Positions 1 through 44,568 of a DNA stretch of 44,568 nucleotides are shown one piece after another. The stretch covers positions 1 to 44,568 of the forward strand of contig JAHDFD010000027.1 in assembly GCA_020628375.1 (NCBI GenBank), written 5' to 3'. Origin of the DNA: Chitinophagales bacterium. Its GTDB lineage: Bacteria > Bacteroidota > Bacteroidia > Chitinophagales > UBA2359. Under the pieces are notes generated by a model that saw only the letters and a program-made list of their open reading frames with translations, was not told the origin of the DNA and searched no databases. Position numbers and translations under genes: made by a program. Within the stretch, counting starts at the first letter, position 1. Each line of letters opens with the position of its first letter.

Positions 1-240
1 CTGTCGTGTCAGTTCCTGTTGTATCTGTTCCTGTCGTGTCAGTTCCTGTTGTATCTGTTCCTGTCGTGTCAGTTCCTGTTGTATCTGTTCCTGTCGTGTC
101 AGTTCCTGTTGTATCTGTTCCTGTCGTGTCAGTTCCTGTTGTATCTGTTCCTGTCGTGTCAGCTCCAGTTTCATCAGTTCCTGTCTCATCTGTACCCGTT
201 TCATCTGTAGGATCGTCATCTGTACAAGGCAAGATGTTAA
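1..240 (-). repeat. 30-bp tandem repeat (5 perfect copies plus about 3 diverged copies) inside the giant gene, encoding (TDTTG)n on the coding strand
   Basis: Positions 1-150 are five identical copies of ctgtcgtgtcagttcctgttgtatctgttc. Copies at 151-240 are diverged. The minus-strand frame of the giant gene reads TDTTGTDTTG per unit. Confidence 0.9.
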
Positions 241-9200: not shown

Positions 9201-9688
9201 AGATCCCCTACTGCGAATGCATTTTGATCACGATCCTCAGCACAACCACAATTATCTACCCCACTATCCATTCTTCTGGTAATTAATACTACAGTGTAAG
9301 TTTTCCCCTCACAAAGAGGAATGTTAGCATCTATAAATATTGGAAAAGTATCATAACTATCTCCATCAATAGTTACAGTTCCTGTTGCGGTTCCTGACAA
9401 ATCAGCACAATTACCACCAGGATTAACTTTTATTGCAAAGGCATCGTTAGTTGGACAATTCCCTTCTACAACATAAATTTCATAATAGAAATTATCGGTT
9501 GTATTATTATTATCTACACCCAAAAATTCAATATCATAAATACCACCGCCCTGTGGTGTAAGCTGTAGGTCTACAGCTCCCCAAACGTGGTCAGCTTTCA
9601 AATTAGTTGTTGAAAGAATCAAAAAGAATAAGAGGAAAATTCCTCTTATACAATTAATCCTACAACAAGAAGTAAATGTTTTTTTCAT
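1..9688 (-). CDS. Giant secreted cell-surface protein, partial (over 3200 aa in window; stop codon lies beyond window start). N-terminal signal peptide, tandem ~95-aa Cys-containing HYR-like repeats, and a (TDTTG)n linker near the C-terminus.
   Basis: ATG at 9688-9686 (revcomp of cat). Translation begins MKKTFTSCCRINCIRGIFLLFFLILSTTNLKA, a signal peptide. The frame (codon first bases at positions congruent to 1 mod 3 on the minus strand) was spot-checked open at 5038-4979 (QASTGPTTFDNVPCGSYTLT) and at 31-2 (TDTTGTDTTG). Repeats contain CPANxxxLxCT...TDIAxFTGLGGTVTDNC...VVTRTYTITDECGN...C.QTFTF, which resembles HYR-domain TATDxxGN motifs. The gene is absent from the ORF track, presumably because no stop lies within the window. 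All plus-strand ORFs in 6-9194 are short antisense artefacts. Confidence 0.8.
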   Translation of the reverse strand, partial: MKKTFTSCCRINCIRGIFLLFFLILSTTNLKADHVWGAVDLQLTPQGGGIYDIEFLGVDNNNTTDNFYYEIYVVEGNCPTNDAFAIKVNPGGNCADLSGTATGTVTIDGDSYDTFPIFIDANIPLCEGKTYTVVLITRRMDSGVDNCGCAEDRDQNAFAVGDLITYASGDFGTFPWNSAPDNHADDLDGTTNNCGNNTNSGTLEEGPYDNNWAAAVVTIDVPGIAPWDFEVDVEITDECNGLSTVAFDGDEALGNTVTQNLGMAQAICGATIEATYTAANSCGANFGSNTFVVSDASDVLSEDLSSAVLIDNLSVYDDGGEGRFETINGLTAEGTVCQDGTIDITFENAACAGGDVSVNVTYDVEVLYPTSDFNVPATVINCSDLCGNDLIIGGADQWQNGGLNAGAATTIITQPAINSGFSFDWTTTGGLTLCDNLVTGTDCTDASGSIEIDACVACGEYDITYAITNANCPTCQTTTTETVQVVTPRIVNECVDVAAACGDYTFTFAADVVECVPATGAPSANPYTGAGALVWTRDDGGADDDFTVTAPAAPGTCTQVTFTPTWDFDGCTTCETTGTPVTVSVCAAPDDLVLCATDYQTAVDGFIAATTTALQAGVDAATNCVATTLSNDYTANTLPTACGQANAITVEFTFAAGAVSTACPVDIYIEDTEMPQVVCPANVSGLDCTTDFATTYPGATDIAGFTGLGGTVTDNCNPDVTQISFVDDVDPTTFSLCAADGPFVVTRTYTITDECGNPATCDQTFTFDADTDMPVITCPANITALTCTDALPAGVTDITAFLGLGGTASDNCTDEADLTVAFVDDMTITDIDFCAGGTITRTYTITDVCGNPATCDQTFTFDADTDPPVITCPANNTTLYNNDADFLANNPGATDQAGFIALGGTINDNCSTTFTVAFADVTDPACPNAGNEATVTRTYTITDECGNPATCTQTFIYSCCTAEAGTIDPVTDFCIGDSSPDLTPTGQETGADYAYEFVLTDAAGIVVQGLQATSVFTPAAEGDYCIYGVNYQISTGPTTIAVGSDMTTPEPLHPSECIDVTSVCFTVGGIPEVTAAACANAGYVFPDATATPPNPQLEFVSIDGLSTIPLDLYVFCGDACMDGIGSGGTAPYTYEWFELSDECGYGDFNDPTAGGDEFFIGEQATGFQTGTYTVVVTDAIGCQNTYEFKVFIDTPPVITANDDITVCLGDTVDLEGTSQPDGDGICLEYCEGELPPCVLTNDAIFTICPSFDATWISDFGFDLVFFPNDGSAPITLTLLTPRNAGDGYPNSDDNAEQFCFTNDPTADNGAGGALIELDWNTTANANFNGPGVADLLGLCAPGGFECDPGLSGNWLPEGNVGGNDVFDGLAGLDINTGTFQVSLIDDVPGEGGTYFGYTIDISDPNGCTLSEAITFDPPLFIDESADNDAGEPTPPVECDNLPNCTLSYQWIGSDGFDSGLITIPDADQNTMLATFPAETVTPPVGTTTYTLTVSDCFGCISTEEVIVTVPSEIIPTVSYTCDYGEITVDATGGAAEAAGDEYTFNLNGVDQASTGPTTFDNVPCGSYTLTVTDIAPGNCEYTLDNIEVFDPVVLDQVKTCTETTVTATGGYAGACFTPANGAQGFTFTLDPAGLAVSNTTGVFTSADAAAGTYTVEVNDNNQNVDPVATCLETIDIDICAPLEVAGVPTANCGELDITVAQGGADPNVAFATTPGAYTINVGPSTDGGATLASITATTTLTDAAAASPEFMDLGGDVYIEIVDENGCSTISGPVNIVSCCGDEVVEILGCGAYIDTIDTTGNYPDFTIQDLPIVYVYCDGELGCLEATPDDATATPPYQYFWHELDDNCLFPEDCTDPAFAGSAIGTNAQITDLETGTYQITVVDAQGCCFADTAKVFISTPPTINMNNGGPDTVYQCLGRDITLQATTLPGPNFCREFCGGELPQFFVEPGFEIEVCVEFEHTYISDLSFEVVAPDGTVINLIDGVCCPIGSDTPNDQFNFCFTNNPADTNLDWNNGVAPPAGSSWQPLNGGGVFNPIIGTDANAAPWGVIITDIVGGDFGVFFGISVTITNPDGSQSVFSLDGQNVDINDDQSPTPIFSEPFECFEIINTVVDYEWTGAYNSGVITTGATENTTTPIPPEIQTPAAPGTYEYFLTVTGEWGCQSVDTFVVIIPDETMVTVDESCNYGDIIVNASGGYAGANGEDFSFSISPDPNAAGLISDPASASFTGLACGDYIIQVNDNTPLSPTPISVGGTGGNVPGFFTETCYTVPVAGFGSVLGGPNGATLDGACVDLSASNIGNYGITLTSPSGTTIQLYNFEGVGSSLTPCFQDGQPTIAQFPNDPAGTFSPNSGAFTDFDGEDPTGNWEFCVTNFGFDDGTLNGISIEIIPEPCVEEIMITVYESIVPEVTKACDGSVTVTATGGATDACPSDGTGTYTFTLDNGASNTTGVFSNADAPAGTYMVAVNDGNPNIAGGCEEMIEVTICDPLVIDAIDVVQPITCDAGTGEIAITASGGLSSVGGGLEYSIDGGATWQPAGTFTGLPDGVYTISVRNDDGTCQIDDTATIQAPSTPEVTVPVAFTDETSCQAEDGTITIVAAGGNGTAYEYSIDGGTTWVTSGTFTGLAPGTYTTAVQNGDGTCPFIGEDVTITPAECCVLGNAVAAPAEACSDAGTADICITYDDGDEANGVTVDITANGTTTSFTAATAGANAEECYTVNIDANESCDPADSTFDITITCPTDGVVKVTTTATVTVYPAAFMANTVSPACGEAGSVSITAVDGTECDSAAGTITTPPTCAYDLTYVNTFFAGTTCEQIFSINETYADTTPPVFDGALPGDVTISCADAIPSAENLTGTDDCDTAPVLTVDDVNAGLTCPDANTITRTYTLTDACNNPVTHVQVITVEPDTEAPMFTAPDDETIACGDTSTPPTVTATDNCDTGVTATSVDVETGDACTGITIERTWSAVDACGNAAADQVQTITVEACDCTEPAISISDPCTCDNPNNFTTADGTDLVEETVTITSDTGEIWSLDLGTSNGLFNASGNPISGAPIASENPAGSGVYEFVFFYEPGVGFNADFTNAAGEPLSISGIGADCVTPMDITEEADICDSDLPYVSPTTGTSYSASGSEVIPGTGTCDYMLTVTLNILPCTDDDPTDETGTDETGTDETGADTTGTDTTGTDTTGTDTTGTDTTGTDTTGTDTTGTDTTGTDTTGTDTTGTDTT

Positions 9689-11859
9689 TGTTTGTTTTTA
9701 GATTTAAAAATTTTATGTGTGTGAAATAAATTATTGTCCAATTGATTAACTATATAATATAAACCACTAGGCAAATATGAAGTATCCAAAATAATTTCAC
9801 CTTTAGTTTCAAAAGGGAGAATATCAATAATTTGCCCGATACTATTCAAAAAAATTAATTGAGAATTTTGAACCTTGGAAGATTCAATAATTAAGTGATC
9901 ATTAAATGGATTGGGATAAAAAACTAATTCGGACTGAGCTCCAACCTCATGAGTTCCTACATATTGAACATTTTCTTCAATTGTGTACTTCATTAAGTTT
10001 AAACCTCCTTTGCTGTTCCCTACAACTATATACTTGATATTGTTGTGTGTAAAAAATGCTGGTTTTGTAGCTTTTGATCTGAAATTGAGCGTATCTGTAG
10101 GCAAAAGTGTATTTGATGATAGAACATCAATATTTTCATAAAAGTACAGTTTTCCATCAACAGATCCTACATAAAAGTTTAAAGTATCATTTAGATATTC
10201 GATTGTAATAGTACTATTACCAGATGATGTACCAGGTACCTGAACATTAATGTTACTTATATATTCATTAGTTATTTCAAATTCAGGTATGTTAGATTCG
10301 TTCAGACCAATATTGGTCAACAACCCTACGGTCCCTGAACTTCTTCCAAAGATAATATCTGAAGCTCCATCGTTATTATAGTCAAAAGAAACAGGACTAG
10401 ATGCAGAACCAAAATCCAATTCGAAGCTACCATCTTCTCCAAGCAGATGCCCAAGATAAGTGTAATCGTTATTCTCGTTTAAAAAATAATGAAACTTTCC
10501 AGAAATAGCACCAATCACTATATCATCATCTCCATCTGCATCAAAATCGCCAAATGTTAAATCAAAATTTGAATCAGCAATTCCGGAAAAATCAAACAAC
10601 TCATTCGTCACTAATTCAAAAGAGGGAGTTTCTTCTGAACTGTTATTTCTTAGTATAGATAAATAAAAATCATTTTGATTTGTTTCTTGATTTCTAAAAT
10701 TATTGATAACAAGTATATCAATCAATCCATCTTTATTATAATCATACATTACCGGTTTTGAATAACGCCCTATATCGAACATAGTATTTACTAAAAAATC
10801 TTGTTGAACTAAGTTATATTCTCCTTCATTATTATCGTATAACCAAGCAATTTCAAAAGGTTCGTTACTAAAATTCTCATACTGTTTCGTAACCACTAAA
10901 TCTTCATCTCCATCGTTATCAGCATCAATAAAATTCGGAAGTGGACGACTATTAATTTCAGCAGGCTCATCAAAAGGAAAACCTTCAGAAAATGAACTAA
11001 AAAATGCTACATTTTCTATTCCTTCATTCAATAAAACCTTAAATCCTTCGAAGCGTGAATCACTCATTAACAAATCAACTTTACCGTCATCGTTTAAGTC
11101 TTTAACAAAAATTGAAGGAACAATATGAAGTTTTTCTTCAATTAAATCTGAATAGTCCAGTTTTGAGTTGCAGTCACTATTAAATATAAGACTGTCATTA
11201 TCAAATCGATACTGAAATTTGCCCCAACACTCATCAGAAAGATTAAAGAATAGGCTGTCGGGATTAGTAGAAAACTCAGAAGATATATTTTCAAAAAAGT
11301 TAATAAACTGTCCTGTTGGATCAAAGTGAATAAAGTCGATATCACCATCACTATCGGAATCAAAAAAAGCAGGGGTTTCATCGGCTACAATATTACCTAC
11401 TGTTGAGTTTATAAAATAAGACTCTGAAGCAAATTCTAAGAGCCCATTATTTATATTGCCCAAATAACAACTTATCTTGAAGTTGTCATTGGTAATAAGA
11501 TCTTTCACCCCATCCTCATTAAAATCTTCAATAAAAACAAAGTTAAGAACTTTTGTATCCTTGTAAGGATTTGCCGATACATGTACCCACTTATTATCAA
11601 CTGTCCATTCAAACACTTCAATTGAATTGTCTGCATCATCAAAAACAATTAAGTCATCATCACCATCAAGATCAAAATCAACTTTATGTAGTGAAGTCGC
11701 ATCCATTCCTCCTGCCCAGGGATTAACCAGAATTTCACCATCTTTTATAATGGTTATAGAATTATCTGGTTTCCATGAATAATTATCATTCTGAGCTTTT
11801 AAACAAAGATTGAAATTAAATAAAAATAAGAGAGCAAATATGCTTTTTGGGGAATACAA
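9685..11859 (-). CDS. T9SS-secreted FG-GAP/VCBS-like beta-propeller repeat protein (724 aa) with a C-terminal Por/T9SS sorting domain
   Basis: TTG start at 11859-11857 followed by a signal peptide (SIFALLFLFNFNLCLKAQ). Eight or more DxDxDGxxD-type repeats are present (DLDGDDDLIVFDD, DSDSDGDIDFIHFD, DADNDGDEDLVVT, DFDADGDDDIVIGA and others). The C-terminal ~80 aa (ELVFYPNPFNDHLIIE...LPSGLYYIVN) match the T9SS type A CTD. The stop TGA at 9685-9687 overlaps the ATG of the giant downstream gene as ATGA. Confidence 0.8.
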   Translation of the reverse strand: MYSPKSIFALLFLFNFNLCLKAQNDNYSWKPDNSITIIKDGEILVNPWAGGMDATSLHKVDFDLDGDDDLIVFDDADNSIEVFEWTVDNKWVHVSANPYKDTKVLNFVFIEDFNEDGVKDLITNDNFKISCYLGNINNGLLEFASESYFINSTVGNIVADETPAFFDSDSDGDIDFIHFDPTGQFINFFENISSEFSTNPDSLFFNLSDECWGKFQYRFDNDSLIFNSDCNSKLDYSDLIEEKLHIVPSIFVKDLNDDGKVDLLMSDSRFEGFKVLLNEGIENVAFFSSFSEGFPFDEPAEINSRPLPNFIDADNDGDEDLVVTKQYENFSNEPFEIAWLYDNNEGEYNLVQQDFLVNTMFDIGRYSKPVMYDYNKDGLIDILVINNFRNQETNQNDFYLSILRNNSSEETPSFELVTNELFDFSGIADSNFDLTFGDFDADGDDDIVIGAISGKFHYFLNENNDYTYLGHLLGEDGSFELDFGSASSPVSFDYNNDGASDIIFGRSSGTVGLLTNIGLNESNIPEFEITNEYISNINVQVPGTSSGNSTITIEYLNDTLNFYVGSVDGKLYFYENIDVLSSNTLLPTDTLNFRSKATKPAFFTHNNIKYIVVGNSKGGLNLMKYTIEENVQYVGTHEVGAQSELVFYPNPFNDHLIIESSKVQNSQLIFLNSIGQIIDILPFETKGEIILDTSYLPSGLYYIVNQLDNNLFHTHKIFKSKNKQ

Positions 11860-27412: not shown

Positions 27413-28993
27413 TTATATGATATCTACTAGTCCTATTTCACTTGCTTGCCATGCAATTTCAACTTTTTCTATTCCTAAATTTTTAAGCGTTTCAGCTGTT
27501 GAAGTGCCTATTGCCAAAATACGTTGATGCTCTTTGATCTCATGTTTTGACAAATAAGCTTCAGCATTTAAAGAACTGGTAAAAGCAAGAATGTCATGGT
27601 CTAATTCCGGGAAATCCTGAATGGGTTCATTTTCATAAACAACCCAATTAATAGCATTGATATTTTCTCCTATTCTCTTTTGAATCGATTGCTTTGAGTT
27701 TGAAGCCTGTGGAAAAAGTATATCTTGCCCCTCTGCTATTTTCAAAAAAGTCTGTGCTGTATCTTCTACTCCTTCATCATTTCCGATAAAATCGGGTTGA
27801 AAACCGTATTCTTTTAATTCATTCGCTGTGCCTGAACCCAAACAAGCTATTTTGTACATCAACAATCGTTGAACACCATTAAAACGTGGTACGATCTCAA
27901 AGAAATACTGAACGCCTTTTCTGCTCGAAAAGAAAATCCAATCTGCTTCCGGTAATTCAAATACTTCAGCAACTTTGAAATTGATCAAAGAATTTCCTTC
28001 AACAAGGTATCCTTGACTTTCCAATTGCTTTTTAAAATAACTTTTACCTGATTGATTTCTGGAAATAAATACTTTCTGGGGCTCAAAAGCCTTTAAAGCT
28101 TTCAATGTCTTTTTAACTACCTTTTCTGGTTTTCTTGAAGAACGGAACAGTCTTTTATAAGCTTTGGCTTTAGGTTTATTCACATCATAATCAGACTGAT
28201 AAAATGCCCACACATTATATCTTTCTTCTTCATATTCACAATAAACACCTATAGGTAACTGACAGCCACCTTCCAGTTGATGCAAAATACTTCTTTCTAC
28301 TTTCACTGCTGCTTCGGCACTGCTATCGTGTATCGTTTCAATTGCTGCAGCTGCTTTAGCATTACCTTCTTTTATCTGATACGCTAAAACTCCCTGAACA
28401 GCAGCCGGAATAAACTTTCTTGGATCGAATTTGAATAAATGGTAATTACTAAGATCGAGTTCTAATCTGGAAAGCCCTGCTGCGGCAAGCACAACAGCAT
28501 CTACTTCTTCTTCCACTTTTTTAACTCTGGTCGGCACATTTCCTCTGATCGGAACAACTTTGATATCGGGACGAAAAGCCAATAATTGGGCAACTCTTCT
28601 CGGAGAAGAAGTTCCAACGATCGCTCCTTCTTTTAAATCCCATAAACGCCCAATATGAACTGCTTTTTTATTTATAATGAGCCAATCTTCTGTTCTATCA
28701 CGGTAAGAATTTCCGGCGATAATCAATCCTTCAGGATTTTCGGTTGGTAGATCTTTGTAAGAATGTACAGCAATATCGATGCTTTCATCCAATAATGACT
28801 CTTCTAGTTCTTTAGTAAAGAAACCTTTTCCTTCCAACTTATCAAAACCAACGTTCTGAATTTTATCACCTTGTGTTTTTATGATCTCGATTTCAACCTC
28901 GTATCCTTGTTCAGTTAGTAAACTTTCGACATAATGTGCCTGCCATAAAGCTAACTGACTTCCACGTGAACCAATTATAATTTTGCGATCCAT
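27413..28993 (-). CDS. hemC/hemD: Bifunctional hydroxymethylbilane synthase / uroporphyrinogen-III synthase (HemC-HemD fusion)
   Basis: The N-terminal ~300 aa match HemC (IIGSRGSQLALWQA, GTSSPRR, RGNVPTRV, AAAGLSRL). The C-terminal ~225 aa have the HemD-like double Rossmann layout. 526 aa in a single ORF. Confidence 0.7.
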   Translation of the reverse strand: MDRKIIIGSRGSQLALWQAHYVESLLTEQGYEVEIEIIKTQGDKIQNVGFDKLEGKGFFTKELEESLLDESIDIAVHSYKDLPTENPEGLIIAGNSYRDRTEDWLIINKKAVHIGRLWDLKEGAIVGTSSPRRVAQLLAFRPDIKVVPIRGNVPTRVKKVEEEVDAVVLAAAGLSRLELDLSNYHLFKFDPRKFIPAAVQGVLAYQIKEGNAKAAAAIETIHDSSAEAAVKVERSILHQLEGGCQLPIGVYCEYEEERYNVWAFYQSDYDVNKPKAKAYKRLFRSSRKPEKVVKKTLKALKAFEPQKVFISRNQSGKSYFKKQLESQGYLVEGNSLINFKVAEVFELPEADWIFFSSRKGVQYFFEIVPRFNGVQRLLMYKIACLGSGTANELKEYGFQPDFIGNDEGVEDTAQTFLKIAEGQDILFPQASNSKQSIQKRIGENINAINWVVYENEPIQDFPELDHDILAFTSSLNAEAYLSKHEIKEHQRILAIGTSTAETLKNLGIEKVEIAWQASEIGLVDII

Positions 28994-30141: not shown

Positions 30142-31176
30142 ATGTTTAAATTTTATTATTCAATGATAAATTTTGCTTTAAACTCAATTGTATTGGCAAA
30201 CCCCTGGTGGTTGGTTTTACTATTGATCATACCTCTTTTGGCATTCTGGATATATCGAAACTATCATCGCCAGTATGCCGATATGAAATTCAATTCTGCT
30301 AATAAGGAAAAATCAGGTTTGACCTTAAAAGGCTTTCTTAGAAACAGTTTGGTTTTCACTAAGTTATTAGCGTTAACACTGCTGATCGTAGCAATGGCGC
30401 GCCCTCAAGATATGTTGCAGGAAGAAAAGGTTTCTACCGAAGGTATCGATATTGTTATAGCAATGGATATTTCGGGAAGTATGCAGGCAATGGACTTTGA
30501 GCCTGATCGCCTTGGTGCAGCAAAGAAAACAGCTTCCGATTTTGTTGATGCCCGTAAAGATGATAGAATTGGTTTGGTCGTATTTGCCGGTGAAAGCTTT
30601 ACACAATGTCCGGTTACCACTGACCATGCAATTTTAAACGTTTTAATGAAAGACCTCAGCAATGACAACTTGATCGAAGATGGTACTGCTATTGGTATGG
30701 GATTAGCAACAGCAATTAATCGTTTGAAAGATAGTCAATCGGAGAGTAAAGTCGTTATCTTACTAACCGATGGTGTGAATAATAAAGGTTTTATAGATCC
30801 AATGACGGCAGCAGAAACGGCTGAAGAATTCGGTATTAAAGTATATACAATCGGTATTGGAACAAAAGGGCAAGCGCCTTATCCTGCTCGTGATCTATTT
30901 GGTAGAACCGTAACCAGAATGATGGAAGTTCAGATAGACGAAGAATTACTTGAACAAATTGCTACTATGACGGGTGGCCAGTATTTCCGTGCGACAGATA
31001 ATAATAGTCTGAAAGATATTTATGCTGAAATTGATAAAATGGAAAAAACAGAAGTAGAGATCAGTTCAATTCGTCGTTTTACAGAACGTTTTCATCCACT
31101 TGCGATCTTAGCAGTTGCTATTCTTTCTTTAGACTTATTGCTTCGATTAACTATTTTACGAGGCTTGACTGGTTAG
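30142..31176 (+). CDS. batA: BatA-like membrane-anchored von Willebrand factor A (VWA) domain protein
   Basis: N-terminal TM segment WWLVLLLIIPLLAFW, MIDAS motif DISGSM, C-terminal TM segment. 344 aa. Confidence 0.75.
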   Translation: MFKFYYSMINFALNSIVLANPWWLVLLLIIPLLAFWIYRNYHRQYADMKFNSANKEKSGLTLKGFLRNSLVFTKLLALTLLIVAMARPQDMLQEEKVSTEGIDIVIAMDISGSMQAMDFEPDRLGAAKKTASDFVDARKDDRIGLVVFAGESFTQCPVTTDHAILNVLMKDLSNDNLIEDGTAIGMGLATAINRLKDSQSESKVVILLTDGVNNKGFIDPMTAAETAEEFGIKVYTIGIGTKGQAPYPARDLFGRTVTRMMEVQIDEELLEQIATMTGGQYFRATDNNSLKDIYAEIDKMEKTEVEISSIRRFTERFHPLAILAVAILSLDLLLRLTILRGLTG

Positions 31177-33854: not shown

Positions 33855-34020
33855 CTAGGGGATACCTGCCTTCGCAGGTATGACTGATAGAAGTGTTGGA
33901 TACCAAACATTCACAAGTATGGGTTGATTGAAGTGTTGGATACCCAAACATTTGCAGGTATGACTGATAGAAGTGTTGGATACCCAACATTTGCGGGTAT
34001 GACTGATAGAAGTATTGATT
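33855..34020 (+). repeat. Tandem array (4 units of ~40 bp) of a hairpin-containing repeat, consensus GGATACC(C)AAACATTTGCAGGTATGACTGATAGAAGTGTT
   Basis: The first unit ctaggggatacctgccttcgcaggtatgactgatagaagtgttggatacc contains the inverted repeat atacctgc/gcaggtat. Positions 33855-33906 are identical to 36041-36092. Confidence 0.9.
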
Positions 34021-36040: not shown

Positions 36041-36298
36041 CTAGGGGATACCTGCCTTCGCAGGTATGACTGATAGAAGTGTTGGATACCAACATACGCT
36101 GGTGTGCCTGATTGAAGTGTTTATTGGGGATAACTGCCTTCACAGGTATGACTGGGAGAAGTGTAGGATACCAACATAAGCTGGTGTGCCTGATTGAAGT
36201 GTTTATTGGGGATAACTGCCTTCACAGGTATGACTGGTTGAAGTGTTTATTGGGGATACTTGCATTCGCAGGTATGACTGATTGAAGTGTAATGTCTG
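36041..36298 (+). repeat. Tandem array (~6 units) of the same hairpin repeat family, organised as a 2-unit (~82 bp) higher-order repeat
   Basis: The first unit is identical to the first unit of the array at 33855. Units alternate between ggataccaacata[c/a]gctggtgtgcctgattgaagtgtttatt and ggggataactgccttcacaggtatgactgg..gaagtgt. Confidence 0.9.
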
Positions 36299-39200
36299 TT
36301 ACCACCAATCGGGTGGTTGAATAGAAAGATCGTTCAGGAGTTTACGGATGCCTTCGAGGCTGTCTTTATATTCGCCGAAGTGGCTGGCGATATCGCTGAG
36401 GGCAGAATCATTTTTGGCCTTTTTGTTTTCTGAAAAAATAGTTTTTATTTGTTCCCAACGTTTTTGCTCTCCAGCATTAGCCAAACCAACCAAAGCTTTA
36501 AACTTCAATAAATTGGCTTCTGAACCATTGGTCAAGGTTTGGCTTTCGTTTTCGTAGTGAGAAACAATAAGCGTTTCCAATTCTTTATCGTTCATGATCG
36601 GTACTAACTTCTCTACCATTTTATTCATATTACGATACGAGCCTTGCAGTTTAAATGGTGGTTCGGTTCTATATTCATCATTGATAGAAGCCGAGCGAAT
36701 ATATTCCTGATTTACATTTAAAACTACATCTCTCACTCTTATCATTTTTTCAATGATAGATACATAATCGTTTATTTCTTCTGGGCTGTGTTTGTGTACC
36801 AATGTAATTCCTTCCTGGTTTCCTTGTTGAGCAATTTTAATAATATTTTTCACATCATCTGTACCCTTAGCCGTCAATTTTTGCAGAATGGGGTTAGAAG
36901 TCATGGCATTTTCAAGATAACTTAATTCAAATTCTGCTTTGGCATCGCCTAATATATCTCCTAAGTTGTAAATATCGGCACGGTTGGCTAACATATCAGG
37001 AATCTGGAATTTCTCTCCACTTTCAGTATATGGATTTCCCGCCATAACCACACAAACTTTCTTGCCTCTGAAATCGTAGGTTTTAGTTTTGCCTTTGTAA
37101 GTACCTTCAATTTTGCGTTGCGCATCACATAATGAAATAAATTTCTGTAAAAACTCTGGATGGCAATGTTGGATATCATCTAAATAGATCATTACATTAT
37201 CGCCCATTTCAAAAGCAAGGTTCAATTTTTCCAATTCTTGTTTTGCTCCTGCTGAATCGGCTTGCATCGGATCAACAGAAGTGATATAATGTCCCAATGC
37301 AGGACCGTTGATCTTCATAAAAACCAAGCCCAAACGATTGGAAAGGTATTCCATTAAAGTGGTTTTACCATATCCCGGTGGTGAGATCAGTAAGAGCAAT
37401 CCCATACGATCGGTTCGCTGTGTATCACCAACCGAACCAATTTGCTTCGATAAATTATCTCCTAAGATCGGTAAATACACTTTGTCGATCAATTCGTTTC
37501 TCACAAAAGAAGATAACACTCGCGGTTTGAATTCTTCCAAACGCATATTGGCTTTTTCTTCTTCAATAACTTGCCTTTTTAAATCCTGATAGGCTTTGTA
37601 AGCCATTACTGTTTCTGCATCGAATTTCTTCAGCTTATTAATGAACGCTAAAAACTCTATGGAATAAGTTCCTTTTTCGATGAGCTTATGATCGCCCAAC
37701 ATTTCGTTTAAATGTATGCTCGTATTGGTATCGTTAATGCGCCATTTTGCTTTTTCATTCCAAAGAAATGAAGCAATGCCCTGATAACGCCAACGCTCAT
37801 CTGCATTTTCAATTGCCAGAAATGCCAAAACCCATTTACCTATTAACTGGAAGCGTTCGATTGGCTTTTCCTTCAGTGCTTCCAAAGAGCTATTGTATCC
37901 TTTTTCTGATTTTGTTTCTTTTAAATATTGAATTAAAGATTCGGCTAATTCTTTGTCTGTTAAGGAAACGATATAATCTTTTTGCTTCAATAATTCTTCA
38001 TATAAATAAGCAGCTGCTAAGCGGGTATTAAATTCAAAATTGAGTGCTGCGCTTTCTTTGAATTCAATTATTTTTTCTTCCAATTTGTCAATCAGGTAGA
38101 AGAATTGTTTCGATTCAGGAAAGACCTTTAATACTTGAGCTGCACCATTGATCTCATTCTGAAAATCAGTTTTAAATCCTTCATTTTCCAAGCCTTCCCA
38201 AAACAGTAAAGCCGCTGCTCTTTCTTCGGGTCCGAACTTTAACAGATCAATATTTTCATCTATTTCTATAAGGCGATCCAATATTTTTTTGGCGTCTTCA
38301 TTATGTACACCTTTTACATAAGATTCCTGTATTCTCGAATCGATGATCTTATTGATAAATGGAATTTTTTCATCTTCAGCAAGTCCTTTGTAAGTATCTT
38401 TCAGCAGTTTATTAAAAATACTGAATGCTAAAAATTCTGCCCGATAAACCAGTTCATTTTCAGAGATCAATTGCTGATTCCAGAAAGGTTTTGTTTCTAT
38501 AAAATCGGCGTTGGTAATGGGTTCAAAAAAGTTCGTTCCCATTAAGTGAAAGCACATATCTTCACCTTGTGGTACTATACTCAGATCTAGTTTTTGCGTA
38601 TTAACAGAAAACTGATGCTTACCAAGCTTGATGATATTTTCACCATCGACAAAGAGTTCGTTTTTATCTTTCAGTTGTCGGACTGCCTCTTCTTTAGCTG
38701 CTTTTAATTGTGCTGCAACATCGTCTGACTTGACCGGATCTTCCAAGGTTCTTAACTGCGAAGAAATATCGCGCACCTTCTCCACCATCAGATCGGCAGC
38801 GAAATAAGCATTGATCTCATCATTGGTTTTGAAAGTCGCCAGTTTATTTTTTATACCTTTCAGAATCCTTTCAGCTGAATTCATTAAGGCATTTGTTTTA
38901 CGGTTATAAGCTTCGACTAACTGTAATTTACGATTTTCAAATGCCTCGTAAATTTCTTCTCTTTTTTCAGCTATTTCAACAGTAAATTCATCGTAATCGG
39001 CAAATTTCCCTTCTAAGTCTTCGAGCTGAACCATTAATTTATTCAGATATTCATCGGCTTGAACTGGTGTTTCTACAACTGATAAATAATTAATTAAACT
39101 CTGATCAAGTAATTTCGCTTGTGCTGAAAAGTTGGCTACCGATTCTGTTCCTCTTAATTCATTCAAACGCTGTTTGAGAACAGATTTCGATTTATTCAAA

Positions 39201-41176
39201 TTGGCGAAGATGGCAGAAATACTGTCTATGATCTTGGTAGTTTGTGTGGCATCTTCAATCTTAAGATTTCCAACTATTTCGATCAGCATTTTTAAATCCT
39301 GTCCTATAACATCTATTTCTTCATCTAACTTTTTAGCTTGCGTTGCGCTCTTTAGCTCAGGAATTAGTTTGTTTTTTGCTTCAACATCCTCGATATAAGG
39401 GGCAAGTGCTTTATCTGAACTAAGGAATTTTACACAATTTTCTGAAACCTTATCACTTTGTTCTACTAGTTTTTGTTCTAATACTTCTACTCTCTCTAAA
39501 TCAATATATCTCAATTCTTTGAGGGAAATAGTCTCCCCTCTTATGATTCGGAAATCGTTTAGAACCTGAACATAATCATTGATCGATTCAAAACGTAAGT
39601 ATTTGGTTTTTTCCAGTTGTTCTTCGATCTTTTTTTCTAGCTCTTCAAAACTTTTCGCTGTACTTTTCTTGATGCTTTGGACTTTATCGAACTCATCAAT
39701 AGCTGCGGTTGCCGTCTTTCTGATCGAAGTAATTGGTTCTTGTAAATTAAAAGCCTGTTCTTCACCGATCCAGTAATAAGCATCGATTATATCATTGGAT
39801 TTTTTACTCAGATCATAGTATAGATCCTGATAGGAATCTTCTTTATTCAGTAAAGCTATCAGCTCATAAGCCTCTGCCATTGCTTTAACAATGTCTTTAT
39901 TACCGACTTTATACAAATAGCTGTCTTTCAAATCGGAAGGAGCTTCGGTGCTTTGTGTATAGGGCGTTTGCCAGATTTGGATTACATGGTGTTTGGTACT
40001 TTCTTCTTCAGATTTAAAGTAAGCCATTTCACCATTTGGGAATAAGGTAAATCCATTACAGATCACTGGATTCTCTACCTGTTGTTCAATAATGTTATAA
40101 GAAAGCAGGATATAAACGTTCTGTTCAGGTGAAAAGAAAATGTATAAGAAATCTTCTCCATTGGGTGATGATAGCTTTTGCTCAAATTTAAGTCCTTCGA
40201 GTTTATTATCGAAAAACTTGTATTGCCCTGTTTGCAGATAATAACCATTTGAGAATATCAATCCCTGATCGTCAGGTAATAAAATTGCAGCACTAGCGAT
40301 AGTATCTATTCTTTTTGCTTCTTTAACCTTATCGTTATAAATGAAGTATCTGTAATCTTCTTGATAAGGTCTTATTTTAAGCGCGAATAAGTTACCTAAA
40401 TCGGCATAATAATATTCACCATCATCCAGTTTTTGTTCTTTTTGAGCAACTTCTTCAGCATAAATACCTTTTCCATCATCGGTATTATCTTCAATTTTGA
40501 TCGTTATATCACCACCAACTGCTTCAACAAATAATTTATCTTTTATGGAAACATGTGGATGTTTTCCATCTCTGAAATCATCTCTTCTTAATCTACTCCA
40601 CGAAAAATCGAGCTGTTCCGGAAATTTATATTCATGATCACTTCTGTCATCTACATATTGAAGTTCATTTTCTTTTATTAACCATTTAAAGGTTTTGATA
40701 TCACCTATATTTTTACTTACCTGAAAAACCATATACAGGTAATTTCCTATTCGGGCAAATTTGGTAAATACAGTTTCTCTGTAATATTTATAAAGATTTT
40801 TAAAAGAATCGATAAATTTTTCGTCTGAAAGAAGCTTTACTTCTTGTTCCTGAAAGGCATTATTACTGAATTTATAAATGCTGAAAACATCTTCAATTTT
40901 AATTTCGGAGCGTAAGCCAATATGTACATTATAGCCAAATAAAACCGTATCTCCCAATGCAAAAATATCTCTGGCAATACAGTTATTAGATGTATTGATC
41001 CTATCGGTCGCCAGCAGCTTTGTTTCGATAGAACCGAATACTTTTTTTCTTTCTGTATTCAGTTGATCAAGTCGCTTACTTAATTCACCTTGTTGTTTCA
41101 GTAAACGGGTTCTGATTATACCATAAGTATCTCCTTCAAGTTGAGTTGTCTGATTTATATTTTTCTCTTCCTGCAT
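36299..41176 (-). CDS. Giant (1625 aa) protein. The C-terminal region is a MoxR/AAA_5-type ATPase, and the N-terminal ~1250 aa are uncharacterised, with a long central coiled-coil or helical region.
   Basis: Walker A LLLISPPGYGKTTL. Walker B and sensor region MIYLDDIQHCHPEFLQKFISLCD resemble the MoxR DEINRApPevqsaLL pattern. KKVCVVMAGNPYTESGEKFQIPDMLANRADIY resembles the MoxR ATQNP...LPEAQLDRF pattern. The middle 700 aa are E/K/L-rich heptad-like sequence. Confidence 0.75.
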   Translation of the reverse strand: MQEEKNINQTTQLEGDTYGIIRTRLLKQQGELSKRLDQLNTERKKVFGSIETKLLATDRINTSNNCIARDIFALGDTVLFGYNVHIGLRSEIKIEDVFSIYKFSNNAFQEQEVKLLSDEKFIDSFKNLYKYYRETVFTKFARIGNYLYMVFQVSKNIGDIKTFKWLIKENELQYVDDRSDHEYKFPEQLDFSWSRLRRDDFRDGKHPHVSIKDKLFVEAVGGDITIKIEDNTDDGKGIYAEEVAQKEQKLDDGEYYYADLGNLFALKIRPYQEDYRYFIYNDKVKEAKRIDTIASAAILLPDDQGLIFSNGYYLQTGQYKFFDNKLEGLKFEQKLSSPNGEDFLYIFFSPEQNVYILLSYNIIEQQVENPVICNGFTLFPNGEMAYFKSEEESTKHHVIQIWQTPYTQSTEAPSDLKDSYLYKVGNKDIVKAMAEAYELIALLNKEDSYQDLYYDLSKKSNDIIDAYYWIGEEQAFNLQEPITSIRKTATAAIDEFDKVQSIKKSTAKSFEELEKKIEEQLEKTKYLRFESINDYVQVLNDFRIIRGETISLKELRYIDLERVEVLEQKLVEQSDKVSENCVKFLSSDKALAPYIEDVEAKNKLIPELKSATQAKKLDEEIDVIGQDLKMLIEIVGNLKIEDATQTTKIIDSISAIFANLNKSKSVLKQRLNELRGTESVANFSAQAKLLDQSLINYLSVVETPVQADEYLNKLMVQLEDLEGKFADYDEFTVEIAEKREEIYEAFENRKLQLVEAYNRKTNALMNSAERILKGIKNKLATFKTNDEINAYFAADLMVEKVRDISSQLRTLEDPVKSDDVAAQLKAAKEEAVRQLKDKNELFVDGENIIKLGKHQFSVNTQKLDLSIVPQGEDMCFHLMGTNFFEPITNADFIETKPFWNQQLISENELVYRAEFLAFSIFNKLLKDTYKGLAEDEKIPFINKIIDSRIQESYVKGVHNEDAKKILDRLIEIDENIDLLKFGPEERAAALLFWEGLENEGFKTDFQNEINGAAQVLKVFPESKQFFYLIDKLEEKIIEFKESAALNFEFNTRLAAAYLYEELLKQKDYIVSLTDKELAESLIQYLKETKSEKGYNSSLEALKEKPIERFQLIGKWVLAFLAIENADERWRYQGIASFLWNEKAKWRINDTNTSIHLNEMLGDHKLIEKGTYSIEFLAFINKLKKFDAETVMAYKAYQDLKRQVIEEEKANMRLEEFKPRVLSSFVRNELIDKVYLPILGDNLSKQIGSVGDTQRTDRMGLLLLISPPGYGKTTLMEYLSNRLGLVFMKINGPALGHYITSVDPMQADSAGAKQELEKLNLAFEMGDNVMIYLDDIQHCHPEFLQKFISLCDAQRKIEGTYKGKTKTYDFRGKKVCVVMAGNPYTESGEKFQIPDMLANRADIYNLGDILGDAKAEFELSYLENAMTSNPILQKLTAKGTDDVKNIIKIAQQGNQEGITLVHKHSPEEINDYVSIIEKMIRVRDVVLNVNQEYIRSASINDEYRTEPPFKLQGSYRNMNKMVEKLVPIMNDKELETLIVSHYENESQTLTNGSEANLLKFKALVGLANAGEQKRWEQIKTIFSENKKAKNDSALSDIASHFGEYKDSLEGIRKLLNDLSIQPPDWW

Positions 41177-41311
41177 TAGCTTTTGGGGTAAAGGGTGAAA
41201 ATTTAGAATAATTTTTTCTTCAACTTGTTTAGTAGTCCAATATCATAGTGTAAGAAACTATGACATTGGATTATTAACAAATGAGCATTCTTAAGCTACT
41301 TTCAATGACAA

Positions 41312-43402
41312 TTAAAAGAAATTATCAATTCCTACATTCCCCATACCTAAATGCTTAACTGAATTTATCATTGTTTGAATTATATCTTTATCATTATCAC
41401 CAGCCTGACTATACATTTTCATTAGGAAGGCACTTAAAGTAAGATTTTTAAGTGTATCAGAATCAAAACCAGATTTTGCTATTAGCTTTCCAATTCGAGT
41501 AGATAAATCTTCTCCGCTTCCATTTTCAGCAAGTAGCATTTGTTTTACACTTGAAATCGTTTCGCTTTCATTTACTAATCTATCAATCCCTTTGGCTCTG
41601 CTTATTTGCTTCATTATATTCTCGAAGAACATTGTTTCACCACCGACTATATCAATATTAGAATTTTTAAGTGCTTCAGCAAGTGTATTGGCTTGTGCTT
41701 GTGCTATGGCCTCCTGAATATTAATATTTGCAAGTTCGATTTCCTTTTCCTTTTCAAGCTGAAGTTTGAACTCTTCGTGTTCTTTACCTACACCATCTAA
41801 TTTTTTCATTGCTTCGGCTTTCTCTTCAATCCCTAATGCTTCGGCTTTTGCTTGTTCTTCTATTACATGAGCTTCGGCTACTCCTTGCTCTTTTATAATT
41901 TGTGCTTCTACTAAGCCTCTTTCTTTTTCAGCTTCTGCTTTAATTCTTATACTTTCGGCTTCGGCTTTTGCAGTTGCTTCGATCACTTTAGCTTCAGCTA
42001 AACCTTCAACTTCTAAAGCTTGAGCTTTTGCTTCAATTACTTGTGCTTCTGATTTTCCAACTGCTGCTTCTTCATTTGCTTTTGCTTCTGCAATTATTTT
42101 TCTGGCTTCAGCTTCTTTTACCGAAGCATTCTTTTTAGCTTCGGCTTCAATAAGTGCTTGTTCCGCTTCTAGTTTTGAGGCTTCTTTTGCCGCTTCAGCT
42201 CGCTGTACGTGTTTAATCAATTCTTGTTCTGCTTCTTGTTCGGCTGCTGTTACAGCTACTTGTTTAGACCTGTCAGCTTCAGCAAATGCCTTTGTATCTT
42301 TAATTTTCTCTTCTTCCGCTACAACTTCTTTTTCTACCATTACTCTTTCACGAATAACATCCTGTATATTCTTTCGCTCAACCTCTAATACTTTTTCTTT
42401 TTCTATCTCGGCAAGTGTAACTATTCTTTCCCTTTCTGTTACTTCTAATAACCTGTCTTTTTCTACTCTTTCAGCTTCAATGGCTTCCGTTCTTTCTTTA
42501 TTTTTTAATGCAACTATAACCTGTCGTTCCTTATTTGCTTCAGCAATTTCTATTTCCTCATCAGTAGCAATTCTTGCTGATTCCATTTTTAATCTTTCCT
42601 CATGTGCTACTTTCTCAGCTTCTGCTGTTTCTCTTGATTGGATATTAGCGATTTCTCTTTTTTGTTTTTCTTCTTTTTCAGCTAGTTGTCTATCTAACTC
42701 AAGAATTGCCTCTCTTGCTTCAACATCTTGTTTTTTAATAACTTTTTCTTCTTCTCTTCTTATTAGATTGGCTTTCATATTCTGTTCCGCAGTCAATTCT
42801 GTGATCTTCTTAATACCTTCTGCATCTAAAATATTATCAGCTCGTAAAAATTCAACTGGTGTTTGTTCTAAATAATCTATAGCGGCATCATCTAAAAGAT
42901 AGCCATTTAAGTCAGTACCTATTATATCTAAAATTTCTTGTTTAAATTCTTTTCTGGAATCATAAAGCTGAACAAAATCGAATTTTTTACCTACCGTTTT
43001 CAGTGCCTCTGAAAATTTCGCTTCAAATAATTCATTTAGTGTTGTAATATCTGATGCTCTTTCACAACCAATTGATTGCGCTACTTTTTTAACTTCTGCT
43101 GTTTCAGGATTTACACGAACAAAAAAAGCTACTTTAATATCAGCACGCATATTATCACGGCATATTAAACCATCTTTTCCCATACGATGAATCTCTACTT
43201 TCTTCACTGAAATATCCATAATTTCGCCTTTATGAATAACAGGAATTACCATCATTCCTTCAAAAGCGACCTGGGTTCCTCCAACACCTGTTCTCACCAA
43301 TGCCTTTCCCTGAGAGATCTTCTTAAAAAAGCTAACGGTAACGATAGCACCAATAATAATTACAAAAATTAAAATACCGAGCACGATGAATGCGATTTCC
43401 AT
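41312..43402 (-). CDS. Flotillin-family (SPFH/band-7) protein, YqiK/FloT-like
   Basis: N-terminal TM segment followed by an SPFH domain, then a ~300-aa EA-rich coiled coil (AEAEA repeats) and a C-terminal flotillin tail. 696 aa. Confidence 0.85.
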   Translation of the reverse strand: MEIAFIVLGILIFVIIIGAIVTVSFFKKISQGKALVRTGVGGTQVAFEGMMVIPVIHKGEIMDISVKKVEIHRMGKDGLICRDNMRADIKVAFFVRVNPETAEVKKVAQSIGCERASDITTLNELFEAKFSEALKTVGKKFDFVQLYDSRKEFKQEILDIIGTDLNGYLLDDAAIDYLEQTPVEFLRADNILDAEGIKKITELTAEQNMKANLIRREEEKVIKKQDVEAREAILELDRQLAEKEEKQKREIANIQSRETAEAEKVAHEERLKMESARIATDEEIEIAEANKERQVIVALKNKERTEAIEAERVEKDRLLEVTERERIVTLAEIEKEKVLEVERKNIQDVIRERVMVEKEVVAEEEKIKDTKAFAEADRSKQVAVTAAEQEAEQELIKHVQRAEAAKEASKLEAEQALIEAEAKKNASVKEAEARKIIAEAKANEEAAVGKSEAQVIEAKAQALEVEGLAEAKVIEATAKAEAESIRIKAEAEKERGLVEAQIIKEQGVAEAHVIEEQAKAEALGIEEKAEAMKKLDGVGKEHEEFKLQLEKEKEIELANINIQEAIAQAQANTLAEALKNSNIDIVGGETMFFENIMKQISRAKGIDRLVNESETISSVKQMLLAENGSGEDLSTRIGKLIAKSGFDSDTLKNLTLSAFLMKMYSQAGDNDKDIIQTMINSVKHLGMGNVGIDNFF

Positions 43403-43479
43403 AGATAGAGTGTTTAGGTTAAGAATGATTTATTGAATAGACATTACTATCCATTGATTCAAAATAAATTTCTAAAATA

Positions 43480-44178
43480 TCAAATTTCTTCTACTTTTTG
43501 AACATTATAGTAGTTCTCTTTGCTTTTATCAACGACTATACATTGAAAGCCTTTAGGAATAATACCTTTAACGGACTTAATATTGATGGTAATAATTCTG
43601 CCATTGTCAACTGCCTCAGCCTGACCGATTCTTTGTTCAGTTGCTTCTAAAATAACCTTACAAAGTTTTCCTTCAATGGTAGTTTCAGCATTGCCTTTTC
43701 TATTAAGTTTACTGAACATTCCACTAAATGGAGTTAATAAAAATTTAGTGATGAATAGGCTTATTATAAAATTAGGAATTAAGTATAACATACTTAAGCC
43801 TAAACTACCATTATTAAAATATTGGTTTGAATATAGGGAAATACCCCACATAACTGCAACCAAACAGGTAACGATTACAATCACTGGCATTTTTCCAAAA
43901 TGAAAGAATCTAAGCAGTTCTATCATAGTGTCTTCACCAAAACCAGCTCCTCCGGTTTTAGAATTAAGTTCAAGATCACTATCAACATCAGCGTCTAAGT
44001 CTATATCAGTATCTGCATCTAAGTCAAAATCAAAAGAATCAAAGTCGAGTACTCCAATTAAAGAGACTATATTCAATCCGAGGAAAAACAACAAGAGTAA
44101 AGTGAGTAATAGGTTCTCTGGTGCAAAAGCGATATGAATAATGTCTGTCATGATAAGTATAAATATAACTATACTCAA
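43480..44178 (-). CDS. NfeD/YqiJ-like membrane protein with a C-terminal OB-fold domain, the canonical partner of flotillin
   Basis: N-terminal TM segments, an acidic D-rich linker (DFDSFDFDLDADTDIDLDADVDSD), a second TM block, and a C-terminal ~70-aa beta-rich domain GKLCKVILEATEQRIGQAEAVDNGRIITINIKSVKG typical of NfeD short forms. 232 aa. Confidence 0.65.
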   Translation of the reverse strand: MSIVIFILIMTDIIHIAFAPENLLLTLLLLFFLGLNIVSLIGVLDFDSFDFDLDADTDIDLDADVDSDLELNSKTGGAGFGEDTMIELLRFFHFGKMPVIVIVTCLVAVMWGISLYSNQYFNNGSLGLSMLYLIPNFIISLFITKFLLTPFSGMFSKLNRKGNAETTIEGKLCKVILEATEQRIGQAEAVDNGRIITINIKSVKGIIPKGFQCIVVDKSKENYYNVQKVEEI

Positions 44179-44224
44179 GAAGAAAAAAGTTCCAAATTAG
44201 AAAAATTTAGTATTGATCTCGATC

Positions 44225-44568
44225 CTAATCCTCAATGAAATGAAAATAAGATTTAGTTCTTGCTCCATTAGGATTAAGGCCCCCATAATCACCAGTTGAA
44301 ACTGTAATTCTGATAATCGAAGATTCGATTTTATTCTTTTTTCTTAATCTATTTTCAATTTTAAGGGCTAATTTTTCAAGTTCATTGTCAAAACGGTCCC
44401 TGTCGACGTAAGGGTTAAAGGCGTAGAATAAATAATCACTAGAACCCATGATAGTCACATGCATCTCATTGTATCTATATTTACTTGGATGTCCATCAAT
44501 ATCTACCATTCTTACTTTCACTTTTCTAGCCAAAGTATGAAAAGCAATATACCGTTCAAGATTAGTCA
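44225..44568 (-). CDS. Hypothetical protein, 5'-partial (reading frame stays open to the window end). It is the first visible gene of the flotillin/ATPase operon.
   Basis: The frame carrying ...TNLERYIAFHTLARKVKVRMVDIDGHPSKYRYNEMHVTIMGSS... is open with no in-frame stop up to 44568. I recognise no domain. Confidence 0.45.
   Translation of the reverse strand, partial: TNLERYIAFHTLARKVKVRMVDIDGHPSKYRYNEMHVTIMGSSDYLFYAFNPYVDRDRFDNELEKLALKIENRLRKKNKIESSIIRITVSTGDYGGLNPNGARTKSYFHFIED

Follow-up and report, generated by a model that had tools for sequence, protein, structure and literature searches.

Introduction

A purely comparative study has described a class of bacterial operons with the layout CesT/Tir-PspA-YqiJ/YuaF-(band-7 + flotillin)-(beta-propeller + coiled-coil + AAA+), together with abbreviated operons that lack the PspA pair and are more widely distributed (Ravi et al., mSystems 2024, PMC11237479). 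Its supplementary examples include the flavobacterium Dokdonia donghaensis (ANH61663.1), which has the same gene order, and some proteobacterial versions carry a phospholipase D (HKD) gene; the study proposes no tested function for the class and leaves the AAA+ module unclassified (PMC11237479). In the case of Pseudomonas aeruginosa, the genes bacABCDEF (PA3732-PA3727) are known as the 'biofilm-associated cluster' (PMC2587700, PMC10948618); they are co-transcribed, they have been proposed to be sigma-54 dependent, and all of their products increase 6-13-fold in a bacA mutant (PMC10948618). Here, we analyze a related locus in a stretch of DNA of 44,568 nucleotides from a Chitinophagales bacterium (contig JAHDFD010000027.1 of assembly GCA_020628375.1, positions 1 to 44,568; hereafter, the window), in which genes for a short NfeD-type protein, a flotillin, and a giant DUF3686-containing ATPase follow one another on the minus strand. 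As judged from its gene content, the locus represents the short form of the module, without PspA, and we are somewhat inclined to read the module as one of membrane maintenance.

Gene order and conservation of the module

The locus is situated at the right end of the window, and its genes, in the order of reading, are as follows:

44225..44568, minus strand: partial open reading frame (ORF) of at least 113 aa that runs off the contig end; an orphan, co-directional with the module
43480..44178, minus strand: YqiJ/YuaF-type short NfeD, 232 aa from a TTG start, assigned by Pfam, hhalign, and a PDB profile match
41312..43402, minus strand: YqiK-type flotillin, 696 aa, assigned by hhalign against Escherichia coli YqiK
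36299..41176, minus strand: DUF3686-coiled-coil-AAA+ ATPase, 1625 aa, assigned by Pfam and synteny

The intergenic gaps measure 46, 77, and 135 bp in this order, and the four co-directional ORFs, with their lengths and gaps, agree with a preliminary description of this DNA that had been made from the letters and a list of translated ORFs. An in-frame ATG at 44151, chosen by an independent gene call, gives an alternative start for the NfeD-like protein and a length of 223 aa.

We scanned contigs from one genome per species, obtained at least 595 matching stretches, and examined 80 loci, 62 of which were informative in that they contain at least 3.5 kb of sequence upstream of the ATPase gene. 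The flotillin gene stands immediately upstream of the ATPase gene and on the same strand in 59 of the 62 informative loci, and an NfeD-like gene is also present upstream of the flotillin gene in 56; three loci (L027, L037, and L048) have no upstream flotillin gene. Represented among these loci are Bacteroidota, Planctomycetota, Verrucomicrobiota, Kiritimatiellota, Desulfobacterota, Omnitrophota, and Clostridia. Plasmid records searched by tblastn extend the range to Pseudomonas, Proteus, Vibrio, Halomonas, Streptomyces, Nonomuraea, and Deinococcus, and the NfeD-flotillin-ATPase order is annotated both on P. fluorescens pQBR103 and on a plasmid from Streptomyces. Because the order is kept in 59 of 62 loci from at least seven phyla, the adjacency of the genes is not a matter of chance, and the counts support the functional link that the preliminary description had supposed and proposed to check by synteny.

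The same description had counted four genes in the operon, of which the three-gene core proved to be conserved and the first ORF did not. Among 5.8 billion proteins, this partial ORF has no homologue; Pfam, NCBIfam, and PADLOC give no match for it, and it was not found upstream of the module in any of the 80 related loci; therefore, we place it outside the conserved module, the core of which comprises three genes. Near the right end of the window, the sequence breaks in an independent Logan assembly (L082).

A minority of the loci have one to three small, unrelated genes inserted between flotillin and ATPase, at these positions:

L003, 8621-9707: insertion between the flotillin and ATPase genes
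L040, 8085-9383: the same
L069, 7871-9771: the same
L006, 9063-9967: the same
L083, 12151-16325: the same

The inserted genes include those for DMP19-like, DUF3997, DUF3592, AbiEii toxin, lipoprotein, DUF2059, and DUF2339 proteins. The inserted small ORFs were also considered as PspA or CesT genes and rejected as such, being variable and unrelated (DMP19, DUF3997, DUF3592, AbiEii, and lipoprotein). Within an operon that is otherwise rigid, this intergenic position looks like a site of variable insertion.

The NfeD-like protein and the flotillin

The NfeD-like protein matches Pfam YqiJ_N with an E-value of 2.6e-5 (24.8 bits against a cut-off of 23), the profile of its orthologues matches E. coli YqiJ in hhalign with a probability of 96.2% (E 2e-9), and the family profile matches the soluble domain of YuaF (PDB 2K14) with an E-value of 0.005. 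Three hydrophobic segments are present in the protein, the first of them followed by an acidic DxDxD loop, and its C-terminal part is an OB-like domain. These similarities support its identification as a YqiJ/YuaF-type short NfeD, in keeping with the NfeD/YqiJ-like OB-fold membrane protein that had first been named at this position. The acidic tract, DFDSFDFDLDADTDIDLDADVDSD, occupies approximately residues 45-70 behind the first hydrophobic segment. By a simple search for the pattern, a DxDxD-type tract occurs in 17 of 23 aligned NfeD-like proteins, and E. coli YqiJ has none. As the long operons carry polyamine genes, such a tract could be a loop that binds cations or polyamines.

The window flotillin has no sequence match in Pfam, NCBIfam, or the PDB, with Band_7 absent even at an E-value of 10; hence, its identity had to be settled by profile comparison. 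The profile of 32 orthologues aligns with E. coli YqiK in hhalign with a probability of 100% and an E-value of 3e-42 over 391 columns that span the SPFH domain and the coiled coil. By this alignment, the 696-aa protein is clearly a YqiK-type flotillin, so that the earlier assignment holds despite the missing Pfam match. Band_7 of Pfam matches 4 of the 32 orthologues (best E 3e-13), and the names given to the homologues at their source are 'flotillin family protein' or YqiK. The protein is built of an N-terminal membrane helix, an SPFH domain, a long coiled coil rich in Glu, Ala, and Lys, and a conserved C-terminal GGETxFF motif. Its AlphaFold2 (AF2) model, made from 27 sequences, has a predicted local distance difference test (pLDDT) score of 54.6, with values below 50 in the SPFH region; it places a helix at residues 2-24 and is otherwise too poor to be used.

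The giant DUF3686-AAA+ ATPase

The domains and motifs of the ATPase are arranged along the gene as follows:

39773..41086, minus strand: DUF3686 domain, residues 31-468 (Pfam E 9e-182)
39161..39412, minus strand: DUF7902, residues 589-672, inside the predicted helical stalk (Pfam E 2.3e-26)
36497..37504, minus strand: AAA+ module with lid, approximately residues 1225-1560
37358..37381, minus strand: Walker A motif PPGYGKTT (K1271), read from the translation and invariant in 20 orthologues
37175..37192, minus strand: Walker B motif MIYLDD (D1333 and D1334), read from the translation, its DD invariant across the aligned orthologues

A homologue search returned more than 3,700 proteins at E<=1e-5, of which the 120 listed are full length. 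The window ATPase is ~55% identical to its nearest relatives, and identities across phyla range from 44 to 55%. NCBIfam and PADLOC gave nothing meaningful for it. The ATPase is a soluble protein with no transmembrane segment, its highest 19-residue Kyte-Doolittle mean being 1.06. In the composition profile, the stretch of residues ~450-850 has little proline or glycine and a high content of charged residues, which is what a helical or coiled-coil stalk would show.

A DUF3686 search over 1.84 billion representatives yielded 685 clusters (50% identity). Among the 150 best matches listed, nearly all have the domain starting within ~50 residues of the N-terminus, and the full-length proteins among them have ~1600-2000 aa. 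Two matches with DUF3686 far from the N-terminus (P0260 and P0351) were considered as fusions to flotillin or NfeD, that is, as Rosetta-stone evidence, and were rejected; they look like read-through or frameshift calls with junk linkers. An hhalign self-comparison of DUF3686 detected no internal repeat, and a comparison with PDB sequences gave no match; the region has been described as beta-propeller repeats (Ravi et al., PMC11237479).

Conservation along the ATPase is highest in the AAA+ block. Pfam AAA_5 and AAA match residues 1261-1386 with E-values of 8e-8 and 3e-6 (1258-1386 when AAA_22 is included), and AAA_5 is the best-scoring Pfam AAA model. The AF2 model of residues 1186-1625 (pLDDT 80.9) displays a standard AAA+ core with a beta-hairpin preceding the sensor-1 strand, by which the label 'MoxR-like' is right at the level of the fold, and the module belongs to the pre-sensor-1 beta-hairpin and helix-2-insert clade; the nearest solved folds are those of the MoxR proteins CbbQ and NorQ. 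The Walker A motif, N1381, and R1399 are invariant in the orthologues, and N1381 and R1399 sit at the places expected for sensor-1 and the arginine finger, which makes them the candidate sensor-1 Asn and the candidate Arg finger. The Walker B motif reads YLDDIQH, with DD instead of the usual DE in all of the aligned orthologues. Such a DD, which we take to resemble the DnaA-type DDIQ motif, may imply slow or regulated hydrolysis.

Other traits of MoxR proteins, namely a compact size of ~300-500 aa and a canonical Walker B motif of the form hhhhDE, are not shared by the ATPase, and no VWA gene occurs in the conserved neighborhood, whether in the related loci, in the independent gene calls, or on pQBR103 and the Streptomyces plasmid. 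Of the MoxR/AAA_5 domain that the preliminary description had placed at the C-terminus, the AAA_5 match and the fold are retained, while the family traits fail; with 1625 aa, a Walker B DD, and no conserved VWA partner, the protein is MoxR-like in fold only. A BatA/VWA gene is located at 30142-31176 on the opposite strand, ~5 kb from the ATPase gene; it has no counterpart in the conserved clusters and is probably unrelated to the module.

The PspA-linked long form and the bac operon

Directly upstream of the NfeD-like gene, 26 to 29 of 57 loci carry genes for CesT_Tir_1 (E 3e-58) and PspA_IM30 (E 6e-41) proteins as well as a divergent gene for a helix-turn-helix regulator, and the CesT/Tir-PspA arrangement was reproduced in independent gene calls. 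On pQBR103, the module is joined to a yjfI-pspA-DUF350-glutathionylspermidine-synthase operon. The window has the gene of a YqiJ/YuaF-type protein with three transmembrane segments immediately upstream of the flotillin gene and, downstream, a giant protein with a helical region and a C-terminal AAA+ module, as in the operon class of Ravi et al. Since it carries no CesT/Tir-PspA pair, as is the case in their abbreviated operons, we regard it as this abbreviated form. Consequently, the claim in the preliminary description that such an arrangement had not been described has to be withdrawn: the same operon and its abbreviated form were reported in 2024 (Ravi et al., PMC11237479), and bacABCDEF is an apparent long form (PMC10948618).

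The bac operon encodes, in order, the YjfI/CesT-like BacA, the PspA protein BacB, the short NfeD BacC, the SPFH protein BacD (PaFlo3), and BacE, a large 'ATPase involved in DNA repair'. The published reverse transcription PCR primers spanning bacD and bacE encode EGDFFN and PKNNCI, which match the flotillin C-terminal GGETxFF and to the invariant DUF3686 motif NNCIA at residue 64, respectively. From these motifs and the annotation, BacE (PA3728) is probably the counterpart of the window ATPase and a member of the same family, and bacABCDEF appears to be a long form of the module. The related P. fluorescens locus on pQBR103 shows 39% identity in tblastn.

A proposed role in membrane maintenance

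We somewhat favor the reading that this is a widespread envelope-stress or membrane-maintenance module, the ATPase of which remodels flotillin (and PspA) assemblies. The flotillin is anchored in the membrane and is presumed to oligomerize via its SPFH domain and long coiled coil, like other SPFH proteins, with NfeD, through its three transmembrane segments and cytoplasmic OB-like domain, as its probable scaffold partner. The ATPase could dock on this flotillin/NfeD scaffold via the N-terminal DUF3686 domain and the helical stalk. The MoxR-like AAA+ module at its C-terminus is likely to form a ring, as do CbbQ and NorQ, and this ring would spend ATP to assemble, disassemble, or reshape the flotillin assemblies. 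In the long operons, the ATPase may also act on the co-encoded PspA (ESCRT-III-like) polymer with its CesT/Tir-type chaperone; it would then be a functional analogue, not a homologue, of Vps4 on ESCRT-III. Flotillin is favored as the target because the flotillin-ATPase link is the most conserved one (59 of 62 loci), with PspA present in about half. The envelope-stress side of this reading fits because the CesT/Tir-PspA pair is so often found upstream, and the envelope-stress or membrane-remodeling role put forward in the preliminary description is thereby upheld. Protein-protein contact, substrate identity, and the nature of the stress trigger are inferred, and the mechanism follows guilt by association and domain logic.

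A bolder version of this proposal casts the DUF3686-AAA+ protein as an ATP-driven remodeller dedicated to bacterial flotillin cages and PspA/ESCRT-III polymers, a bacterial functional counterpart of Vps4 built on a MoxR-like motor. We hold this version to be tentative and rather doubtful; if true, it would be the first known mechano-enzyme that acts on an SPFH scaffold itself, as opposed to FtsH, which sits inside one.

Several points weigh against the membrane-maintenance reading. The window contig contains no PspA or CesT gene in tblastn searches with the CesT and PspA proteins of two long-form loci (L002 and L005). The Walker B DD could signal a slow, switch-like hydrolysis instead of a processive remodeller. 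The DUF3686 domain, a beta-propeller in the description by Ravi et al., showed neither internal repeats nor a PDB sequence match in our comparisons. The homology of PA3728 relies on annotation and primer-encoded motifs, which fall short of a full alignment; moreover, deletion of the P. aeruginosa flotillin PaFlo3 leads to a biofilm drop of only ~20%. The literature searched offered no experiment or structure that physically links the ATPase to flotillin or PspA, nor any phenotype of a bacE mutant.

Alternative explanations

Three other functions come into question, each less supported than a remodeller. The first is that the ATPase is a MoxR-type maturation chaperone, like CbbQ, NorQ, or RavA, that activates or inserts a cofactor into a membrane enzyme complex, for which the flotillin is merely a platform. 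The closeness of the AAA+ module to CbbQ and NorQ and the first rank of AAA_5 among the Pfam models speak for such a chaperone; however, the conserved neighborhood has no VWA adaptor gene and no adjoining gene of a client enzyme, the downstream genes are not conserved, and the ATPase has five times the size of a MoxR protein and a Walker B DD, which together render this explanation unlikely.

The second is an anti-phage or abortive-infection system, in which flotillin/NfeD senses a perturbation of the membrane and the giant ATPase triggers or executes the response. NTP-dependent conflict systems are one setting in which MoxR-like ATPases are linked to propeller domains, the genes inserted in some loci between flotillin and ATPase include one for an AbiEii toxin and one for a DMP19-like protein, and copies of the module reside on megaplasmids. 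The phospholipase D (HKD) gene of some proteobacterial versions also points in this direction (Ravi et al., PMC11237479). Yet the PADLOC check for which the preliminary description had called was run, and no model of PADLOC-DB v2 matches any of the five proteins at E <= 0.01; likewise, no homologues were found in phage genomes, and the neighborhood in the window is a housekeeping one. PspA, CesT/Tir, and polyamine genes, and not nucleases or other effectors, recur beside the module, the three-gene core is devoid of an effector domain, and an identity of 44-55% across phyla is high for a defense gene. The defense or abortive-infection role suggested in the preliminary description is thus disfavored, and we judge it somewhat less probable even than a maturation chaperone.

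The third follows the databases, in which the Pfam description of DUF3686 is 'ATPase involved in DNA repair' and the protein is named 'DNA repair ATPase'. Apart from these names, the similarity to MCM and RuvB in Foldseek and hidden Markov model comparisons is a generic AAA+ similarity, Pfam and NCBIfam detected no DNA-binding or nuclease domain, and every conserved neighbor is a membrane or PspA-system protein. The literature searched contained no mention of DUF3686 or PF12458, or of a 'DNA repair ATPase' together with flotillin. A function in DNA repair is therefore very improbable, and the name is probably misleading, as no evidence from context supports it. Finally, a fortuitous adjacency without any functional unit, for which only the ATPase genes of L027, L037, and L048 could be adduced, is refuted by the order and orientation kept in 59 of 62 loci from at least seven phyla, and also in Pseudomonas and Streptomyces, and has next to no probability left.

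The 3' end of the module and the rest of the window

The ATPase gene is followed by a repeat array:

36044..36290, minus strand: palindromic intergenic repeat array in four copies, from the sequence and a tandem repeat finder

The repeat unit, CATACCTGCGAAGGCAGGTATCCCC, consists of a stem of 8 bp, ATACCTGC/GCAGGTAT, and a loop, GAAG. The four copies lie within the 298-bp spacer directly 3' of the stop codon of the ATPase gene. In total, the window contains five matches to the repeat against 0 expected, and the fifth, at 33858-33882, is located in another convergent 3' intergenic region. The array looks like a REP-type element or a terminator array, and the transcription unit probably ends here. 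A scan for sigma-70 promoters and terminators gave counts not above those of shuffled controls, in a scan that does not cover the promoters of Bacteroidota.

The 659-aa gene downstream of the module is not conserved in the related loci. The other genes in the window are housekeeping genes (transketolase-like, ABC ATPase, fatty-acid oxidation, and haem synthesis) or encode type IX secretion cargo, and they do not form a defense island. An ORF of at least 3232 codons, at 2-9697 on the minus strand, runs off the left contig end; it has a signal-peptide-like start, MKKTFTSCCRINCIRGIFLLFFLILSTTNLKA, and TGTDTT tandem repeats at its truncated end, and its product is probably a giant secreted adhesin-like protein. 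At 27413-28993, a 526-aa ORF joins the domains of porphobilinogen deaminase (HemC) and uroporphyrinogen-III synthase (HemD) in an apparent gene fusion.

Comparison with known systems

For the building and dismantling of bacterial flotillin and PspA assemblies, we know of no dedicated ATPase. A widespread module (at least 595 stretches and 685 DUF3686 clusters) with a MoxR-like motor beside both kinds of assembly offers a concrete, testable candidate. The window locus itself is another example of a module that has been described and is experimentally almost untouched; it is not a discovery, and its value is that it can now be annotated correctly and connected with the bac operon of P. aeruginosa.

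Among the described systems, the class of Ravi et al. is the closest, as it shares with the window the three core genes, their order, and the phylum; the window differs in that it lacks CesT/Tir and PspA and has an orphan ORF upstream instead. Compared with the bac operon, the window has no equivalents of bacA, bacB, and bacF, and the proposed sigma-54 dependence is that of P. aeruginosa; the published phenotypes of that operon (biofilm, rhamnolipid, and virulence) concern bacA and bacB, not the ATPase. The yqiJ-yqiK operon of E. coli and the yuaF-floT operon of Bacillus subtilis encode homologues of the window's NfeD-type protein and flotillin, likewise in this order, but without the giant ATPase. 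In comparison with these operons, the window flotillin is longer, with 696 aa versus 553 aa, and too divergent for Pfam Band_7, and the window NfeD-like protein possesses an acidic DxDxD loop that E. coli YqiJ lacks.

More distant systems share single features with the module. HflK/C and FtsH likewise couple an SPFH scaffold, genetically or functionally, to an AAA+ machine; however, the window ATPase has neither a transmembrane segment nor a protease domain (no M41 peptidase in Pfam), its AAA+ module belongs to another clade, MoxR-like and not classical, and its SPFH partner is a flotillin and not HflK/C. The MoxR-VWA pairs CbbQ-CbbO, NorQ-NorD, and RavA-ViaA provide the nearest solved AAA+ folds, with the pre-sensor-1 beta-hairpin, but the window ATPase differs from them in its lack of a VWA partner, its length of 1625 aa with DUF3686 and a stalk, and its Walker B DD. 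In the case of ESCRT-III and Vps4, the likeness is one of analogy only, in that a membrane-remodeling polymer, PspA in the long operons, is co-encoded with an AAA+ ATPase.

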